DNA from: Candidatus Saccharimonadales bacterium
GTDB taxonomy: Bacteria; Patescibacteriota; Saccharimonadia; Saccharimonadales; SZUA-47
NCBI GenBank assembly: GCA_038211855.1
Contig: JBBQVE010000008.1
Coordinates: 957-64,956, forward strand
Length of the DNA: 64,000 bases
Direction of reading: 5' to 3'
Below are positions 15,010 through 59,217 of this stretch, piece after piece. The translations under genes were made by a program, and so were the position numbers. Under the pieces are notes generated by a model. It was given only the letters and a program-made list of their open reading frames with translations, was not told the DNA's origin and did not search any database. Each line of letters starts with the position of its first letter. The first letter of the stretch is position 1.

Positions 15010-15924
15010 TTACTGAGTCTTGTCGTGAAACTTCTCGTGGATCGCTTTAAGGTGCGGATCGGTGACGTGGGTGTAAATCTGTGTAGTAGAGATGTTGCTA
15101 TGGCCCAACATGGCCTGCACACTGCGTAAATCGGCGCCGTTCATAAGGAGGTCGGTGGCAAAGCTATGGCGTAGTGTATGGGGTGACACGTGTTTGGTGA
15201 TGCCGCCTAGTAGGGCATAGCGGGCAATCAGCCGCTGGATGCTGCGAGCAGTCAGGCGGTAGAAGTTGCCACTGAGGTTGATCTGTTTGTTGCCGGAGTA
15301 GCGGATAAAGAGCGGACGTGCGTTGTCTTGGCGTTTTTCAAAGTAAGCATTGATCCAATCGGCCGCAACCTCGCTCACAAACACCGGTCGGTCTTTGTCG
15401 CCTTTGCCGCGCACCATAAACTCGCGGCGCTTCAAATTGACGTCTTCCCGGTTAAGATTAACAAGCTCTGAGACGCGCAGACCCGAGCTAAAAAGCAGTT
15501 CAAGAATTGCCCGGTCGCGGAGTCCCTGCAGCGTGTCGGTCTTTGGTTGTGAAAAGAGGGCTGCCAGCTCCTCAGTATTCAAAAACGTGACCTGCTTACG
15601 TGTGGCTTTGGCGAGTTCGATCTTGTCGGCGCTGATGGCCGGAATATCACGCTTGGCACAGAATTTTAAGAAGTTACGTAGTGCAATCAGGTGATAGTTC
15701 TGGGTGTTCTTTTGCAGTTCATCGCTGGTGTTCGTACCTAGTCGGTTCAACCACAGTCGAAATTTTCTGATTAGTTCTGGCGTTATGTCGGCCACTGTTA
15801 TATCACCACCAAAATCAAGTAGACGAGTCAGATAATGGTCGTAGTTTTGGATGGTTTTTTGCGAACGGCCTTGCTCAATCTCGAGATATTCGAGGTAATC
15901 AGTTTTTGCTTTCGCCAGTAACAT
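15010..15924 (-). CDS. xerC: XerC/XerD-family tyrosine recombinase
   Basis: 304 aa. N-terminal SAM-like core-binding domain. C-terminal HTLRHSFATDLL and LGHSNISTTQIYTHV (R-H-R-Y catalytic set). Its stop abuts the stop of the convergent pilX-like gene with no spacer. Confidence 0.85.
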   Translation of the reverse strand: MLLAKAKTDYLEYLEIEQGRSQKTIQNYDHYLTRLLDFGGDITVADITPELIRKFRLWLNRLGTNTSDELQKNTQNYHLIALRNFLKFCAKRDIPAISADKIELAKATRKQVTFLNTEELAALFSQPKTDTLQGLRDRAILELLFSSGLRVSELVNLNREDVNLKRREFMVRGKGDKDRPVFVSEVAADWINAYFEKRQDNARPLFIRYSGNKQINLSGNFYRLTARSIQRLIARYALLGGITKHVSPHTLRHSFATDLLMNGADLRSVQAMLGHSNISTTQIYTHVTDPHLKAIHEKFHDKTQ

Positions 15925-45084: not shown

Positions 45085-45705
45085 ATGTCGAATGGCTTTA
45101 GCTTGCAAGAAATCATCATCTTCCTGGGCGTTTTGTTCTTTTCTACGTCTTTGCATGAGCTGATGCACGCTTTGGTGGCGTACAAGTTGGGTGACGATTT
45201 GGCGCATTCCCGCGGCCGGATTTCGCTCAACCCGATGGCTCACATTGACCCGTTTTTGACCATCCTTCTACCGCTGGGAATGCTACTGCTCGGTATACAG
45301 CCGATCATGGCCGCCAAGCCGGTGCCGATTAATGGGTCGCGTCTGACCGAAGCTGAGATGGCGTTGGTCGGTGTGGCTGGCCCGCTCACTAATTTGGCAC
45401 TGGCCATCATTGCCGGTGGTATTTTGCGAGTCACGAACTTTGGTGGTCTCGCCTTTGCTATTGTCTCGGCGTTTCTCTTCCTTAATATCGCTTTGTTTGT
45501 GTTTAATATGATCCCGTTCCCGCCGCTCGATGGTTCACGCGTACTGTACGCCTTTGCGCCCGAGTCAGTCCAGCGGGTCATGCAACAGATTGAAGGCTTC
45601 GGTATCTTTGGGGTGATTATCTTGATTACCGTTTTCTCTTCGACTCTGAGTCCGCTACTAGGATCAATCGAGGATCACCTGATACGTCTACTATCGGGGC
45701 GTTAG
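45085..45705 (+). CDS. Site-2 protease family (M50) zinc metalloprotease
   Basis: 206 aa polytopic protein with HELMHALVA (HExxH) and NMIPFPPLDGSRV. Confidence 0.75.
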   Translation: MSNGFSLQEIIIFLGVLFFSTSLHELMHALVAYKLGDDLAHSRGRISLNPMAHIDPFLTILLPLGMLLLGIQPIMAAKPVPINGSRLTEAEMALVGVAGPLTNLALAIIAGGILRVTNFGGLAFAIVSAFLFLNIALFVFNMIPFPPLDGSRVLYAFAPESVQRVMQQIEGFGIFGVIILITVFSSTLSPLLGSIEDHLIRLLSGR

Positions 45706-49821: not shown

Positions 49822-51339
49822 TTATAGTAACAGGCTTTTTGGTCGATATTGCAAAGCTTCGCCGATATGGGCGGTGGTGATGACTTTGCTTTGTTCTAAG
49901 TCGGCAATCGTACGAGCGATTTTGATGGTTTTGAGATAGACGCGTGCCGACAGCTGTAATTTAGCGGCGGCGGTGTTCAGTAGGGCTTCGGCGGTTGTCT
50001 CGAGCTGCGCTAATGCTTTGATTTGGCGCGTAGAAGCTGAAGCATTCAATGTCTCATTATTTTTGTAGCGGACGGCCTGAGCGGCTCGTACGCGTTCCAC
50101 GACCGAACGCAAACGAGTACTGTCAGTCTGAGCTGTGTTGTTTTTGAGTAAACCGTCATGTTCGACCGCATCGACCGTCAGATGAATATCGATACGGTCT
50201 TGGATTGGGCCTGAAATCTTTTTGTTGTAGTGCTGGATTTGTGCAGCCGTGCAGGTGCATTCATGTGAGCTACCCAGGTAACCACAGGGACATGGGTTGC
50301 GAGTTGCGACCAGCATGAACTTGGCAGGGAATTCCACTGTTTCTCGGGCGCGGGCGACGCTGATGATGCCATCTTCGAGCGGCTGACGGAGTGCTTCAAT
50401 CGTAGAACGGCGAAACTCCGGTAGCTCGTCCAAAAACAACACGCCGCCATTGGCCATGGTAATTTCGCCCGGCTTTGGATTGCCGCCGCCGCCAATAATC
50501 GCCATGTCACTGGCACTGTGATGGGGTGACCGAAAAGGCCGTTTGTAGATAACACCAAGTGGTTCTTTGGTACCGAGACTGTGCAAATGGGTGATTTGTA
50601 GGGCCTCCTCACGAGAGAGGCCTGGCAGTAGTCCGGGCAGTGTGCGCGCCAACATGCTCTTGCCCATGCCCGGCGGCCCGCTAAACAAGATATTATGTCC
50701 ACCTGCTGCAGCAATCAATATCGCTCGTTTGGCTCGCTCTTGGCCGACGACCTCGGCAATGTCGACTTCAACCCGCTCTTGTTGGGCCGGCGCTTCATAC
50801 CAGCCGGCATCAGTTTCGATGAGATCTAGTGGATCTGCGCCCGTAAAATGCAGGTAAAGTTGCTTGAGCGAAGTAATTGGTAACACGGTGAGTTTTGGCA
50901 CAAGTCGGGACTGCGACAAGTTTCCTTCCGGGACGACCATTACTGTCATGCCAGCTTTACGGGCAGCCAATAGTTTGCCAACGATGCCGCGGATTGGATG
51001 CACAGTACCATCAAGGCCAAGTTCACCAAAAAACGCTGTTTCGGCAGGACAAGTAATGGCTTTAGTTGCCTTCAGAAGAGCAGCGGCAATCGCCACGTCG
51101 AAACTACTGCCAAGTTTCTGTAGATCAGCCGGTGCTAGGTTGATTGTCACGCGCTTTTTTGGAAATTGCAGATCAGAGCTACTAAACGCCGCCCGCAGAC
51201 GTTCTCTTGATTCGTCGACGGATTTGTTGGTCATACCGACAACGGTGACGTTCGGTAACCCGTTCGTTATGTGACATTCTATGTCGATTAGCAGCCCTTC
51301 GCCACCGACAATCTGCACAGAGTGTGTCTTAGAGCTCAT
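49822..51339 (-). CDS. comM: ComM/YifB Mg-chelatase-like AAA+ protein
   Basis: 505 aa. N-terminal Lon-like domain, Walker A GPPGMGKSMLA, LFLDELPEF, and a Cys cluster CPCGYLGS..HECTC. Confidence 0.88.
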   Translation of the reverse strand: MSSKTHSVQIVGGEGLLIDIECHITNGLPNVTVVGMTNKSVDESRERLRAAFSSSDLQFPKKRVTINLAPADLQKLGSSFDVAIAAALLKATKAITCPAETAFFGELGLDGTVHPIRGIVGKLLAARKAGMTVMVVPEGNLSQSRLVPKLTVLPITSLKQLYLHFTGADPLDLIETDAGWYEAPAQQERVEVDIAEVVGQERAKRAILIAAAGGHNILFSGPPGMGKSMLARTLPGLLPGLSREEALQITHLHSLGTKEPLGVIYKRPFRSPHHSASDMAIIGGGGNPKPGEITMANGGVLFLDELPEFRRSTIEALRQPLEDGIISVARARETVEFPAKFMLVATRNPCPCGYLGSSHECTCTAAQIQHYNKKISGPIQDRIDIHLTVDAVEHDGLLKNNTAQTDSTRLRSVVERVRAAQAVRYKNNETLNASASTRQIKALAQLETTAEALLNTAAAKLQLSARVYLKTIKIARTIADLEQSKVITTAHIGEALQYRPKSLLL

Positions 51340-51419
51340 GCCGTTGCCCAGCCTTCAGGAAAGAAGGGCCAGCAGCAGGGCACGATTAATTTGATTTTTG
51401 GGCGCTTACTAAGACTCAT
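51336..51419 (-). CDS. Small upstream ORF (27 aa; 40 aa if started at 51458) translationally coupled to comM
   Basis: GGGAG (51431..51427) lies 7 nt before ATG 51419. Its stop TGA 51338..51336 overlaps the comM ATG 51339..51337 (ATGA). comM has no SD of its own and its frame closes 6 codons upstream. Peptide MSLSKRPKIKLIVPCCWPFFPEGWATA. Confidence 0.4.
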   Translation of the reverse strand: MSLSKRPKIKLIVPCCWPFFPEGWATA

Positions 51420-51735
51420 ATGAGTACTCCCTAAATTAGATTTGATTGTGTAGAACATACCGCCTTTTGCAGTAGGTGATCGCATCATTACACATGGACT
51501 TTGGCTACTGCAAGCACAAGCGTTTCAAGGAGTGAGAAAAATTACAGGGAAAGTAAAAGGCCCCAGCCTTTTTATTAGATGGAGCCCCTTACTTTTGTAG
51601 TTTTTTTGTCTTGTATTTTAGGTTTTTGCCTGACGCACCCGACCATTTGTTTGAATGGAACAACGGCTTGCGAGAAGCCGTTGTTACAGATGCGTTTTTA
51701 TTTTTGAGCACTTTTTTTATTCAAGTGCTATGCAT

Positions 51736-51764
51736 ATCCTACAAAGCATTAGCGCTGAAGTCAA
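51736..51764 (-). promoter_or_regulatory. Candidate promoter for the sORF-comM transcript
   Basis: Read on the minus strand: TTGACT (51764..51759), 17-nt spacer, TAGGAT (51741..51736). It would give a ~300-nt structured 5' UTR. Confidence 0.35.
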
Positions 51765-52350
51765 CAACAATTTTTAAGATTTTCTACCCACCAGGCAACT
51801 TTTCTACATCGAACGTTTTACATACTGCAAGATCCTATCTGATAAAACATTAGAAAAACCTGAATTGGTACGATACGGCTGGTGAAAAATTCCTCCAAAA
51901 AAAGTATTTTTTGTTTGTCAAAAACTGCAGACGAGCCATAAAACTTGAACTACTTTGTATTGATAGGCACGCATTGGCCACCATCACACCCACTTCCAGC
52001 GACCGCGGCACTCACTGCAAGCGTTTCCAATGATTCTTCCATGAATGTACAGAAAAACCGCACACAGCGGTCATGATTGTTGCAACGCAACAGCTGAGGC
52101 CTCCTTAGGAGAAATCATAAAATCGCTCCAATAGTGGCGAGCCTTGCTGCTGCTTGCGACGAGCCAAGTCTCCAGGAGGGGGCTTTGCGATACCCGTTTG
52201 CAGTAAGTAGGGCAACAAGCAGCATGCTTACTATATGTATGCAGTTTTTAAGCGAAATAGGGGTACTTCACATATAGTTACTGATGTTAAAAAAGCAACT
52301 TTATATATTATTAAATTATAGATCTGTAACTCCTTAATACAGTGTTGGTA
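51765..52350. other. ORF-free segment containing a ~190-nt element closed by a long-range helix
   Basis: No ORF of 60 aa or more. ACTGCAAGCG (52014..52023) pairs with CGTTTGCAGT (52195..52204). Nested helices at 52030..52040/52108..52118, 52058..52070 and 52079..52091. Strand and function unknown. Confidence 0.3.
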
Positions 52351-52575
52351 TGCTATTTATTACAACGTAAATTTGCATAAATAAGTATTGCTATTTTTAA
52401 ATATGTATGCTAATAATAGTGGAGTCAGGAAAAAACATAAAAACAATAAATATATCGTTCTTCTCGGCCTTAAAGCCCCGAAGAGCGGTCAGTCACACCA
52501 GCGGGAAGCAACTGCCTAATAGTTAATTTATAGCGGCGGATTTGCTTCCCCTGGTTCCTAGAATCTCCTTTGTAG
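52351..52575 (+). promoter_or_regulatory. AT-rich triple extended -10 region plus structured leader upstream of the ATPase operon
   Basis: TGCTATTTAT (52351), TGCTATTTTT (52389) and TGCTAATAAT (52408) resemble the TGCTATACT promoters seen elsewhere in the window. Hairpins at 52460..52485 and 52503..52550 (9-bp GGGAAGCAA/TTGCTTCCC base). Confidence 0.35.
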
Positions 52576-52611
52576 AAATTGTGCCTAGGGTATGGGCACA
52601 ATTTTTATTTT
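52576..52611 (+). terminator. Intrinsic terminator 12 nt before the start codon of the next gene
   Basis: 10-bp stem aaattgtgcc / ggcacaattt, 8-nt loop, then TT-A-TTTTT. ATG at 52623. Confidence 0.55.
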
Positions 52612-52622
52612 TGTGAGAAGAT

Positions 52623-52970
52623 ATGATAAGAGTTATGAATAGAAAACGTCTCACCATCTTTGTTATCAGTCTGTTGGTCTTCTTGGTGTTCATCCTGACA
52701 ACTTCACCGTATCGTTTGCCACTTATCCTTATAGTCGTACCTGGAGCCGCTTTTATTATTGCCGTTCACAGCATCTTGTCGCTGTCTGCGGATAAGGTAC
52801 CTATCCAGCCAAAAGCTGCCCGCAGCCTCGTTACTGTCCTGACGATCATCTTATCGGTGCTTGCTGTCTTACTCTCGGTCGGGCAGCTGACCTTCCGTGA
52901 TTTTGCGTTATTGCTAGCACTGGCATTATTCGGCATGTTTTATTTGTCGCGTATGGGAGATAAAGGATGA
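52623..52970 (+). CDS. Small 4-TM membrane protein
   Basis: 115 aa with four hydrophobic helices. No SMR or CrcB signature seen. Confidence 0.55.
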   Translation: MIRVMNRKRLTIFVISLLVFLVFILTTSPYRLPLILIVVPGAAFIIAVHSILSLSADKVPIQPKAARSLVTVLTIILSVLAVLLSVGQLTFRDFALLLALALFGMFYLSRMGDKG

Positions 52971-53019
52971 TGCAAAAAAGCGACAAGTCTTTCTACTTTT
53001 AAGCAGTTACTTTATACTT

Positions 53020-56599: not shown

Positions 56600-57175
56600 T
56601 TATGCAGAATGTTTATTGCGTATGAGGGCACGAACAACGAGTTCGACAGCCATGCCACCGACGAAACCACCGACGAATAACAAAATGAATACCAGATAGT
56701 TATAGCGGAAGCCGCTGTGCTTACTGACGTATAGCAAAATTGAACTACCAAGCAGTGCTGCAATGCCACCACCGAGAACACCCGATGGGCGAGCGACGGT
56801 TGGCGCAGCAGCTTCGCTCATCTTCTCAACAACTGGTTGGTGGATGACTTTACTCAATGTTTTAGCAGGTGCGCTCATCTGACGTCGAGCGTTGTTGAGT
56901 GAGCGTCTGAAGCCCATCTGCTTGAGTTCGCTACTGATGTAGGTTGCGGCAGGGGTGTTCTCGCCGGCGGCTTCGCCCTTGCTGTAGTCCTCTTTGCTGA
57001 TGGCTTTGGTGTCGACATCGGCTTTGATTGATTCCAGCACTTCCTCATCGTGGGTCTCGGTATCAGCCTCAGCGCGCCGCTTGAGAGCGTTCAGATGCTC
57101 GCGGGCGGCTTCAGTAGTGCCCTCAACGGGTGCTAGTTTTTCGTGCTTTGGTGCGTGTCCATGTACTTCGCTCAT
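56600..57175 (-). CDS. Hypothetical membrane protein (acidic N-terminal half, two C-terminal TMs)
   Basis: 191 aa. ATGA overlap with the upstream LPXTG gene. Confidence 0.5.
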   Translation of the reverse strand: MSEVHGHAPKHEKLAPVEGTTEAAREHLNALKRRAEADTETHDEEVLESIKADVDTKAISKEDYSKGEAAGENTPAATYISSELKQMGFRRSLNNARRQMSAPAKTLSKVIHQPVVEKMSEAAAPTVARPSGVLGGGIAALLGSSILLYVSKHSGFRYNYLVFILLFVGGFVGGMAVELVVRALIRNKHSA

Positions 57176-59217
57176 GCGATGCCTCCTGTTGGTGCGTATT
57201 CGACTTTAATTAGTTCAAGTTCGCGGGCCAGCAGGCGACTGCGGGCAAAGAAGTAGCCGACAATCATGGTGACGGCAAAGCCGAAGACCACACTGGTGCC
57301 AGGACCGGTGTTCGGCAGGGCAGTCGTGACGGTTTCGATACATTTAGAGCCGCCACAAGGCAAGTTAACGGTGACAGTTGTCCCATAGACGTTTACCATC
57401 TTTAAATCGTACGTACCGGCGTCAGAAGATGACACAGGCGTACCGGGGATGACATCTTTGACCTTGACTGTGATGTGATTTTCAATTGTCTCGCCAGCTT
57501 TGATAGTAGCCGCTGGCCACGAAACGACCTTTGTCTGCTCGTTGATCTTACCCCCATGAAGGTCAACTACATCGGAATAATCAAGAATATCAATGATAGA
57601 TTCATCAACGACAAAGTCTTTCTGGGTCAATTTGTTCGAAACATTTGTCGTGATAAGGGTGTATTCGAGCGTATCACCGGCTTTAGCGGTCTTGCCGTCA
57701 AAGTTCGTATCTTTTTGGGTTGGATTCGCGACTTTCTTTTGCTTCACGATTTTGGCAACGCACGACTTATCATCTGATTGCACGAGTGGGTTCTCGAGAC
57801 ACGGCTTACATTTTGGGTTATCCAGAAAGATCGTTTTATCAGAGGTACAAGGCACGGGCTCAGGAGTAATCTTGATAGCTTTCTGACAGGCAGTGGCAGT
57901 CTTCTGACCAAGAGAAGTCTCGGCGTAAAGGATGGTCGTATAGCTGCCGTCTTTTGCGTAGGTGTGCGTGATGTCATCGGTCGTCTTGAAGTTAGTGAGC
58001 TTACCATTGTTATCGCCAAAGTCCATATTGTAACTATTTATTGTGGCGCCATATTGGCCGGTGGCTCTGGCCGTGAAATGCACCACAGTTTTAACCTGAT
58101 AGGTGTCACTGGAAGTTTGTAAAAGGTCGCAAGAGGCGATTGGTTCTTTGCAATCACCACTCGTTGCGGGCAGATTGGTTTTGCCGGCAACCGTACATAG
58201 TGGCGTTGGAGCGGGTGTTGGGGTTGGAGCTGGCGTAGGTGCTGGGGTTGGCGTTGGGGTGACAACAGGTTTTGGACAGTTAAAGTTAACTGAGCGGCCA
58301 CTGCCGCCTGTGAGCAGGGCATAGTTGCTGCCACGGTCGGTCACATAGACCCATACCTGATGGGCGTGGCCATCATCTCGGAGTGGCCCGCCGTTCCAAA
58401 CATACCCCACCTCCGCAGGAATTCCGAGAGAAGCTTGGACGTCTGGTCGTGTCTGATTGGCCTGCACTTCGAAATAATCTTTATTAGCGACCGCACCGGA
58501 GAAGGCCGGCTTATCAACATAAATATGCACAAAGCGTTGGTTGCCATTGTTGTAGGCCCAACCGTAGATGATGTTACAGTCAGATCCATCAACAAAGCCC
58601 GATGGTTGAGGGGCTGGCGTCGGTGTTGGTTCGTTAAGATCAATGACCGGGTTCCCACAAGCCAGAATGATCATTTTGATCTTGCCGCATGTTTCGCGTG
58701 GACAAAACAGTACCGGTACAAGGTTGAGCCCTGGGAAAGTTGAGGTAAAGTCGTGCTGGAAGATAGGTGCGTTATATTCGCTGCTGGTAATCATGACGCT
58801 GGTTTCTCCAGCGCTGTTATTAGCACCACGTCCAGCCGTTAACAGATGGCGTTTACCGTCGCGGGCATCCTGGGCTTTATCGACATTCGTCATCTGCATC
58901 TTGGTAGCAATATCGTCACGGCTGATGCCAAAGTGCGTGTAGACAGACTGTACAAAGGGGCTTTCATCGTATTTTGCTAAGACGCCTTCACGGCTCGCTG
59001 CAAAACTGCCTTGAATAATGTTGCGATCCGAAGAAGCGAGGGTTGGCTGAGGTGGCGCAATCACAGCGATCATCTGGATCACCATCGCAAAAGCAACAAA
59101 GGCAAAGCCCAAGCGACGTAGGGTTGACTCCTGTTTGGCGCGTTTGGCATAAAAAGACACCTGACCGATCAAACTAGGGTTGAAGGGCAGGTTGGATATG
59201 AGTTTTCTGAAGTTCAT
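57172..59217 (-). CDS. LPXTG-anchored surface protein with PKD-like and DUF11/CARDB-like domains
   Basis: 681 aa. N-terminal TM/signal. PT-rich linker. PKD-like YNMDFGDNNG...THTYAKDGSYT. C-terminal LPNTGPG followed by a hydrophobic helix and RSR. Confidence 0.75.
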   Translation of the reverse strand: MNFRKLISNLPFNPSLIGQVSFYAKRAKQESTLRRLGFAFVAFAMVIQMIAVIAPPQPTLASSDRNIIQGSFAASREGVLAKYDESPFVQSVYTHFGISRDDIATKMQMTNVDKAQDARDGKRHLLTAGRGANNSAGETSVMITSSEYNAPIFQHDFTSTFPGLNLVPVLFCPRETCGKIKMIILACGNPVIDLNEPTPTPAPQPSGFVDGSDCNIIYGWAYNNGNQRFVHIYVDKPAFSGAVANKDYFEVQANQTRPDVQASLGIPAEVGYVWNGGPLRDDGHAHQVWVYVTDRGSNYALLTGGSGRSVNFNCPKPVVTPTPTPAPTPAPTPTPAPTPLCTVAGKTNLPATSGDCKEPIASCDLLQTSSDTYQVKTVVHFTARATGQYGATINSYNMDFGDNNGKLTNFKTTDDITHTYAKDGSYTTILYAETSLGQKTATACQKAIKITPEPVPCTSDKTIFLDNPKCKPCLENPLVQSDDKSCVAKIVKQKKVANPTQKDTNFDGKTAKAGDTLEYTLITTNVSNKLTQKDFVVDESIIDILDYSDVVDLHGGKINEQTKVVSWPAATIKAGETIENHITVKVKDVIPGTPVSSSDAGTYDLKMVNVYGTTVTVNLPCGGSKCIETVTTALPNTGPGTSVVFGFAVTMIVGYFFARSRLLARELELIKVEYAPTGGIA
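58200..58265 (-). repeat. Low-complexity Pro/Thr/Ala linker-coding tract inside the LPXTG gene
   Basis: Iterated ggNgtt/ggNgct units on the plus strand, encoding PTPTPAPTPAPTPTPAPTP. Confidence 0.6.

Follow-up and report, generated by a model that had tools for sequence, protein, structure and literature searches.

In Escherichia coli, the ssrS gene, which encodes 6S RNA, lies upstream of ygfA, an example of the bacterial small-RNA genes whose synteny with a downstream open reading frame is fixed and which may in part be co-transcribed with it. Processive antitermination relies on RNAs or RNA sites such as put of HK022, the EAR of Bacillus, lambda nut and the boxA-Nus system of rrn operons. 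OLE is a large non-coding RNA (ncRNA) which forms a ribonucleoprotein (RNP) at the membrane, and its gene is adjacent to the membrane-protein gene oapA. Here we describe an element which resembles each of these systems in part, as well as terminator riboswitches and attenuators. It lies in a 64,000-nt stretch of DNA (the window; contig JBBQVE010000008.1, positions 957 to 64,956), a chromosome segment of a Saccharibacteria (TM7) bacterium belonging to the candidate phyla radiation (CPR). The element lies within positions 52351-52622, ahead of an operon headed by a small membrane protein, and it looks like a separate small-RNA gene, which we favour over a riboswitch.

More precisely, the region from about 52423 to 52612 is read here as a self-contained gene for an autonomous, structured RNA which is non-coding and about 187 nt long; its terminator would at the same time insulate an operon that is started separately and without a leader. 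We give this reading an even chance of being right. A near-consensus sigma-70-type promoter (52388-52417) would drive the RNA, which would consist, in order, of an A-rich 5' segment, a hairpin (P1), the invariant linker GGUCAGUCA, a long second hairpin (P2) and a strong intrinsic terminator. The main jobs of this terminator would be to make the 3' end of the RNA and to shield the weak promoter behind it. The operon, encoding the small membrane protein, a 138-aa protein and a VirD4/TraD-like ATPase, would be initiated separately, as a leaderless message, at ATG 52635 through the -10-like hexamer TATGAT (52622-52627). We infer both the ends of the RNA and its action as RNA from the comparisons set out below; the predicted transcript is most likely highly expressed.

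To our knowledge, the regulation of the epibiotic lifestyle in CPR bacteria is largely unknown. According to a 2022 transcriptome preprint, the Saccharibacteria isolate TM7x is without validated small RNAs (10.1101/2022.03.25.485537), and no description of the present RNA was found in the literature on small RNAs, riboswitches and ncRNAs of Saccharibacteria and Patescibacteria. The locus offers a concrete small-RNA candidate with strong comparative support, namely a single copy per locus, a consensus promoter and a covarying structure, and homologues appear to be present in clades with cultivated, genetically tractable members.

More than 150 Saccharibacteria loci carry P1, P2 and the terminator ahead of the operon's orthologue. 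Eighty loci were obtained via the ATPase alone and the region was compared by BLAST and nhmmer; both hairpins were found upstream of the orthologous operons fetched in this way. In 36 of the 80 loci, the 9-mer GAGCGGTCA (window position 52483) is found once, on the + strand, and its relative position is constant, 0.9-1.2 kb upstream of the ATPase. A covariance model built from 21 sequences matched 23 loci exactly once each (62-113 bits) and revealed no further copy of the RNA in the window. Furthermore, a pattern describing the RNA only retrieved 120 metagenomic contigs, and homologues of the 138-aa protein and the ATPase follow the RNA on the same strand in every retrieved contig with at least about 1.1 kb downstream; where contigs reach far enough upstream, comM is usually divergent at -0.3 to -1.8 kb. 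These metagenomic sequences were selected by a pattern fixing GAGCGGTCAGTC, AAGCGC and GCGSATTT, so that the choice of pattern accounts for part of the invariance at those positions; the independent genome set is likewise invariant there.

Genomes with the RNA range from environmental Saccharimonadales to Nanosynbacteraceae-like ones associated with hosts (L044, L053-L056). The RNA always adjoins the operon of the VirD4-like coupling ATPase, in the window's clade usually opposite comM, and small hydrophobic proteins homologous to the first operon product come after it in all loci. The predicted RNA ahead of this operon is a previously undescribed family across the class Saccharimonadia. It shares with ssrS/6S-type genes a strong promoter, a structured RNA of about 190 nt, a 3' end just before a same-strand gene and a neighbourhood kept across a large taxon.

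The promoter is conserved together with the RNA. TTGAC(A/T)-17-(TGC/TAG)TAnnnT stands upstream of the RNA in 95 of 119 relatives, the closest relative, L132, has TTGTAA-17-TAATAA, and the conserved 5' hairpin of the family (P0) begins 7-9 nt after the -10 box. An earlier note on this DNA had listed three TGCTA boxes as tandem extended -10 elements. Of these, only the one at 52408 is an extended -10 conserved in the family; that at 52389 overlaps the -35 hexamer and that at 52351 lies outside the conserved promoter. A palindromic operator TGTA-N-TACA upstream of the -35 was dropped as a candidate, being present in only 8 of 94 sequences.

The predicted structure is well supported by both folding and covariation. 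The + strand of 52420-52625 has a minimum free energy (MFE) of -74.8 kcal/mol, against -47.4 +/- 4.5 in 200 dinucleotide shuffles (z = -6.07, no shuffle as good), whereas the minus strand of the region folds more weakly (z = -4.4). Across 100 sequences, 20 of the 30 base pairs carry compensatory changes, double-change cells number 355 versus 135 +/- 12 in shuffled data, and the covariation score is 0.31 versus at most 0.065 with slid partners. Conserved G-U pairs suit the + strand only, one pair being G-U in 99 of 100 sequences and another U-G in 26 of 100. Folding of individual sequences gives one isolated P1 hairpin in 110 of 117 relatives (110 distinct sequences, median 12 bp) and one isolated P2 hairpin in 117 of 117 (median 22 bp). 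All seven inner-helix pairs of P1 carry compensatory changes; those of P2 show 24-36 double changes per 100 sequences, with 94.6-99.7% of cells paired. The two hairpins which the earlier note had drawn at 52460..52485 and 52503..52550 are present, as P1 (52456-52487) and P2 (52497-52555), and the alignment and covariation test which it had suggested bears out a conserved structured RNA upstream of orthologous operons.

In relatives, the A-rich box CAAAAACAAAAAC of the 5' segment is the loop of P0 (GUAAG...CUUAC, with stem variants), whose stem has at least 5 bp in 86 of 100 sequences and at least 6 bp in 55, versus 17.8 +/- 3.5 after shuffling. The window and L132 are without the 3' strand of P0. 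In these two sequences the 5' end and the tail behind P2 may instead pair and close P1 and P2 into a multiloop: the L132 equivalents, GGGGUAAGGA and UCCUAGAAAACUCC, still pair, one A-to-G change yielding a G-U pair. Otherwise the architecture is a row of independent local hairpins with no multi-helix junction and no detectable pseudoknot. The inferred length is 187 nt and the family median 189. As the earlier note had observed, there is no convincing open reading frame (ORF) within the window RNA; the family has no conserved ORF either, and its median longest closed ORF is 13 codons.

Larger forms occur elsewhere in the class. A distance of 300-400 nt separates P1 from its upstream promoter in the distant clade, and the host-associated L038, L044 (Nanosyncoccus), L053, L055 and L056 carry a multi-hairpin RNA of about 400 nt with the same elements: P1, then a linker (GUGAAGCGGUCAA), the P2 loop CAAUAGUU and a GGAU bulge. 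At least seven helices are present in the versions of about 400 nt. Compared with these, the window's clade holds the putative minimal form of the RNA plus a terminator.

Rfam 15 gave no match in 52420-52612, whether gathering thresholds were applied or permissive filters with E <= 10, and none in the homologous region of L031; the same scans detect RNase P RNA, tmRNA and rRNA elsewhere in the same loci. The check proposed in the earlier note has thus been run, and, as the note had judged for the aptamers which it considered, the sequence matches none that is known. Individual families were also weighed. A tRNA-like or tmRNA-like 3' end was rejected, NCCA following P2 in only 50 of 117 relatives and CC[AU] in 73 of 117, with a standard tmRNA elsewhere in sister loci. 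Signal recognition particle RNA was rejected as well, there being no GNRA-capped helix-8 motif. The RNA differs from 6S RNA in that it has no closing stem or end-paired 5'-3' rod with a central bubble, P0, P1, P2 and the terminator being consecutive hairpins; there is no Rfam 6S match and no evidence of RNA polymerase binding. The consensus of the forms of about 400 nt likewise shows hairpin domains which are local and, with weak support, one long-range helix of 6 bp, and no bubble-containing rod.

The terminator, for which the earlier note had given a core at 52576..52603 and a U-tract to 52611, is present (stem -19.6 kcal/mol, U-tract TTTTTATTTTT, by terminator scan and folding), and it differs from that of L132 by a compensatory U-A to C-G change. 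Among 117 relatives, a terminator of unrelated sequence begins 8-32 nt behind P2 in 78 and a T-rich tail directly follows P2 in 14 more; the strict filter used overlooked several further terminators. No antiterminator exists, because complementarity between the terminator arms and the upstream RNA does not exceed that seen with shuffled arms: the median energy of the 5' arm against the upstream RNA is -8.7 kcal/mol in native sequences and -8.8 in dinucleotide shuffles (median z = 0.00), and only 3 of 78 have z < -2.

These results bear directly on a metabolite- or ion-sensing riboswitch with the terminator as its expression platform, which was the idea foremost in the earlier note. Like terminator riboswitches and attenuators, the locus presents a conserved structured RNA, then a terminator, then a same-strand operon; its invariant nucleotides (the linker, the P2 bulge and the AAUAGUU loop) are unpaired, and the platforms differ between lineages, as they do in riboswitches. 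Set against this are the missing alternation between terminator and antiterminator, the row of hairpins with neither junction nor pseudoknot, the failure to find a complement when a local pairing target for the linker was sought, and the lack of a match to any known riboswitch class in Rfam. Moreover, the P1 loop can be dispensed with, as short forms of P1 exist whose loops are unrelated, the downstream genes are neither metabolic nor transporter genes, and the operon probably has its own, apparently leaderless, start. We regard a riboswitch as very improbable. A terminator right before a start codon need not signify attenuation, and the earlier note's conclusion that it implied riboswitch or attenuator read-through is not supported, given the missing antiterminator, the probable leaderless start and the lack of aptamer-like architecture; comparison of relatives places the likely beginning of operon transcription downstream of 52611, a finding which the note itself had named as contrary to its reading.

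The start codon that the earlier note had assigned to the operon, ATG 52623, has to be revised. In a three-way alignment of the window, L132 and L124 it is AGG in L132 and hence not conserved, whereas the codon at 52635 is conserved (ATG, ATG and GTG, respectively; protein MN(R/K)K...) and is the most likely start. The operon probably starts there as a leaderless mRNA, since the codon and a -10-like hexamer are conserved in these three sequences (L132 TAGGAT-7-ATG; L124 TACTAT-6-GTG) and a similar layout is present in other clades. In one subclade the ATG is preceded at 6-8 nt by CGTA(G/A)A(A/C)T, in the distant clade the start by TATAGT, TATAAT or TACAAT at 6-8 nt, and in host-associated clades the ATG by TGnTATAAT at 6 nt (TGATACAAT in L055). 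Across 103 relatives, TANNNT ending 5-9 nt before the first ATG is found in 36, versus 18.9 +/- 3.8 in local shuffles (0 of 500 as many), and motifs resembling a Shine-Dalgarno (SD) sequence are not enriched before the operon start.

Several observations weigh against an autonomous RNA gene with a separately started operon. Everything said on transcription, including the predicted RNA ends, is read from sequence. The window TATGAT has neither a -35 nor a TG extension; the presence of a terminator and that of a -10 are uncorrelated across relatives (Fisher p = 0.39); no trans target or binding protein was found for the RNA; and a cis-regulator would likewise show perfect synteny. Roughly a tenth of relatives have an ORF which starts 9-37 nt after P2 with no separate terminator, and host-associated clades are without an obvious U-tract terminator. 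In one subclade (L006, L007, L086, L128, L169, L198) an SD (GGAGG/AGGGA) lies 17-25 nt behind the U-tract with no -10-like box, and there the operon seems to depend on read-through from the RNA promoter.

The synteny, with the RNA always adjacent to the operon and always in its orientation, and the variants just described of ORF, U-tract and SD are also what a cis-acting leader with factor-dependent read-through would lead one to expect. Protein-dependent antitermination had also been listed in the earlier note. In such a leader, most transcription of the operon would come from the strong promoter upstream, and the hairpins and/or the A-rich box would bring in a protein or themselves influence RNA polymerase, by analogy with put, EAR, nut/Nus or LoaP-type systems, so that polymerase passes the terminator conditionally. 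The sole near-consensus promoter in the region is that upstream of the RNA, full -35/-10 promoters between P2 and the ATG being rare (6 of 113 relatives), and factor-dependent antitermination requires no antiterminator hairpin, which fits the null complementarity result. As in put, EAR and nut, the hairpins come right after a strong promoter and ahead of a terminator. However, read-through transcripts of the window would lack a usable SD (the spacing of AAGAG and GAGAAG to the candidate ATGs is just 2 nt), the -10/leaderless layout conserved in at least four clades would provide a separate start for the operon, the operon of three genes and 3.9 kb is short and unlike typical targets of processive antitermination, and Rfam finds no put, EAR or other antitermination RNA.

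The boxA evidence is divided between clades. The window RNA has no boxA-like sequence in comparison with the rrn boxA of related genomes (GAACUUUAACAAUUUG), which counts against a nut/Nus-like leader. A lambda-type boxA in P1 (CGCUCUU) was rejected as a candidate, being base-paired and differing from the rrn boxA of related genomes, (G)AACUUUAACAAUUU. Across the family, boxA-like 7- and 8-mers are present in 10-13% of leaders versus about 1% in the background, mainly in the distant clade. In L021, L023, L031, L033, L036 and L039, CCUUAACAAUU (GCUCUUUAAU in L039) is located some 40-80 nt past the point at which the long RNA is predicted to start and closely resembles the rrn boxA of the same genomes, as in the rrn boxA-Nus system. 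This favours read-through to some extent, and it also suggests that Nus-factor loading protects the long untranslated RNA of the distant clade. Overall, conditional read-through from a cis-acting leader is the main rival reading and a serious one, though on the unlikely side.

The A-rich box links the RNA to the divergent side of the locus. A block upstream of comM, 'element A' (51646-51745), has 80-95% identity in at least 20 loci, with invariant columns in its alignment (A4), and reads best as a putative minus-strand promoter plus leader; the 40-aa ORF 51655-51777 (+) within it, tried as a small protein, is probably spurious, the minus-strand promoter and leader fitting better. The comM leader box CAAAAA(U/C)AAAAAC is the same A-rich 13-mer as that of the 5' end of the + strand RNA. 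In about 100 loci, the 11-mer AAAACAAAAAC occurs essentially only in the comM leader (-) and in P0 of the RNA (+), and because it is essentially confined to these two divergent sites, one per strand, a factor shared by both transcripts is likely. A shared RNA-binding factor would also suit the read-through leader discussed above. The box as a general signal of 5' untranslated regions was rejected, its other matches in the window lying inside a miaA-like coding region.

The mirror orientation of the box on both sides of the divergent promoter region is also compatible with a DNA-level element, that is, oriT-like or single-strand-initiation hairpins recognised by the VirD4-like machinery, or operators of a transcription factor. 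Proximity to a coupling-protein homologue and inverted repeats, which are typical of oriT, point the same way. The element nevertheless has a consensus promoter on one side and an intrinsic terminator on the other, both correctly oriented, its long stems covary across loops of 20-80 nt, and the conserved G-U pairs work on one strand only; in addition, Patescibacterial type IV secretion system loci are reported to be without key conjugation components (PMC12102498). A DNA-level role is therefore, in our judgement, extremely improbable.

An autonomous structured RNA is the reading we retain. Binding of a protein or complex is its probable mode of action, given that conservation is highest in loops, a bulge and a single-stranded linker. 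The most plausible connection of its target is to the adjacent ATPase operon and to comM, the latter because the divergent comM leader carries the same A-rich box. A more specific proposal, which we put forward as speculative and rather improbable, is that the window RNA represents, in minimal form, a large structured ncRNA (190-450 nt) present throughout Saccharibacteria and acting as the RNA partner (scaffold, cofactor or substrate mimic) of the adjacent membrane machinery, formed by the small protein with four transmembrane segments, the 138-aa protein and the orphan VirD4-like coupling ATPase, and tying the operon post-transcriptionally to comM via the A-rich box CAAAAACAAAAAC. If true, epibiotic CPR bacteria would have a module for taking up or transferring DNA with an RNA at its centre. 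The locus resembles OLE/oapA in that a structured ncRNA gene lies right upstream of a gene for a small multi-pass membrane protein, and the relatives of about 400 nt are within the size and complexity range of the 'large ncRNAs' of unknown function. It differs from OLE in having no sequence or structure match in Rfam, a membrane protein without a known family and another taxonomic range, and RNP formation here is pure conjecture.

Table 1. Positions of the predicted features of the RNA locus and its flanks in the window.
Feature	Position	Strand	Details
-35 TTGCTA	52388..52393	+	promoter scan; TTGACA/TTGACT at the same place in relatives
Extended -10 (TGC-TAATAA-T), TGCTAATAAT	52408..52417	+	identical in L132
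Putative transcription start of the RNA	52422..52425	+	from the -10 position and the family spacing of 7-9 nt to the first conserved RNA element
A-rich box AAAAAACAUAAAAACAA	52430..52446	+	degenerate copy of family CAAAAACAAAAAC; P0 loop in relatives
P1 hairpin	52456..52487	+	CGUUCUUC..GAAGAGCG, loop CUUAAA; MFE fold, covariation
Invariant single-stranded linker GGUCAGUCA	52487..52495	+	columns invariant in alignment A1
P2 long hairpin	52497..52555	+	conserved GA/CA bulge (GCGG-AU-UU); A/U-rich apical loop with AAUAGUU
Tail UCCUAGAAUCUCC	52556..52568	+	possible partner, in this lineage, of the 5' end GGAGUCAGGA (52421-52430); MFE fold pairs both
Intrinsic terminator	52572..52612	+	16-bp stem 52572-52608 (core 52576-52603), 5-nt loop, then UUUUUAUUUUU; T-tract to 52612
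-10-like TATGAT	52622..52627	+	7 nt before ATG 52635; probable promoter of the leaderless operon mRNA
First operon gene, small membrane protein, 111 aa	52635..52970	+	revised start; ATG 52635 conserved
ATPase, 1001 aa	53477-56482	+	hundreds of relatives, best being Saccharimonadales metagenome-assembled genomes at 63-72% identity
Putative comM-side promoter and leader	51659..51764	-	-35 TTGACT 51764-51759; -10 TAGGAT 51741-51736 (17-nt spacing, promoter scan)
comM-side leader parts		-	hairpin 51730-51706; A-box CAAAAAUAAAAAC 51706-51694; hairpin AACAACGGCUU..AAGCCGUUGUU 51685-51659; then comM side

The RNA sits in an ORF-poor gap of 1.28 kb between a divergent comM-like gene (49822-51339, -) and the operon, which is followed by convergent genes. 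The small membrane protein has no Pfam or NCBIfam family match. The ATPase, which the earlier note had called VirD4/HerA-like, gives only weak matches to the TraG-D_C, AAA_22, DUF87 and TraD/VirD4 models, under all curated family cut-offs; the VirD4/TraD-like part of that assignment is kept, and because the matches are only weak the protein is a predicted distant homologue of the VirD4/TraD-like type IV coupling proteins. According to a 2025 survey, VirD4 homologues of Patescibacteria are mostly encoded apart from virB4, and that of Southlakia epibionticum ML1 was found not essential (PMC12102498).

Between the comM-side leader and a 50-aa ORF (51488..51336, -) lies a long hairpin at 51549-51595 (AAAGUAAAAGGCCCCAGCC..GGAGCCCCUUACUUU) flanked by T/A tracts on both strands, for which Rfam gave only weak, chance-level matches; possibly it is the terminator of a small RNA on the minus strand, a mirror image of the + strand unit. 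Between the divergent promoters, 51765-52387 comprises about 620 nt which are ORF-free and non-conserved, with a GC content of about 0.39-0.40, a small hairpin at 52057-52071 and no BLAST match in the 80 genome loci. The inter-promoter spacing of compact relatives is apparently roughly 90-150 nt.

Other gene starts in the window vary in their layout. The 138-aa gene of the operon may start leaderless too, TATACT (53013-53018) standing 7 nt ahead of its second ATG (53026); its annotated ATG 53020 is only 1 nt behind that hexamer. At 15924, 17274, 34497 and 45085, where first genes of operons start, TACAAT, TATAAT, TATAAC or TATACT is found 6-9 nt before the ATG with no clear SD, although the spacer at 45085, AGGAGT, is itself SD-like. 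The gene starts 6116, 10337, 57172-59217 (-) and 59402 have SDs of the GGGG/GAGG type. Other genes of the window genome share the layout proposed for the operon (TACAAT-7-ATG, TATACT-6-ATG, TATAAC-7-ATG), and the genome appears to mix leaderless and SD-led initiation.

As for other stable RNAs, the window holds six tRNAs and an RNase P RNA, the latter 4 kb upstream of the RNA, and no tmRNA was detected in it. In L022, L030, L031, L033, L036 and L043 of the distant clade, stable-RNA genes are clustered on one strand: RNase P RNA, tmRNA and the RNA are no more than about 5 kb apart, the VirD4-like operon comes next, and 16S rRNA is about 11 kb further downstream.

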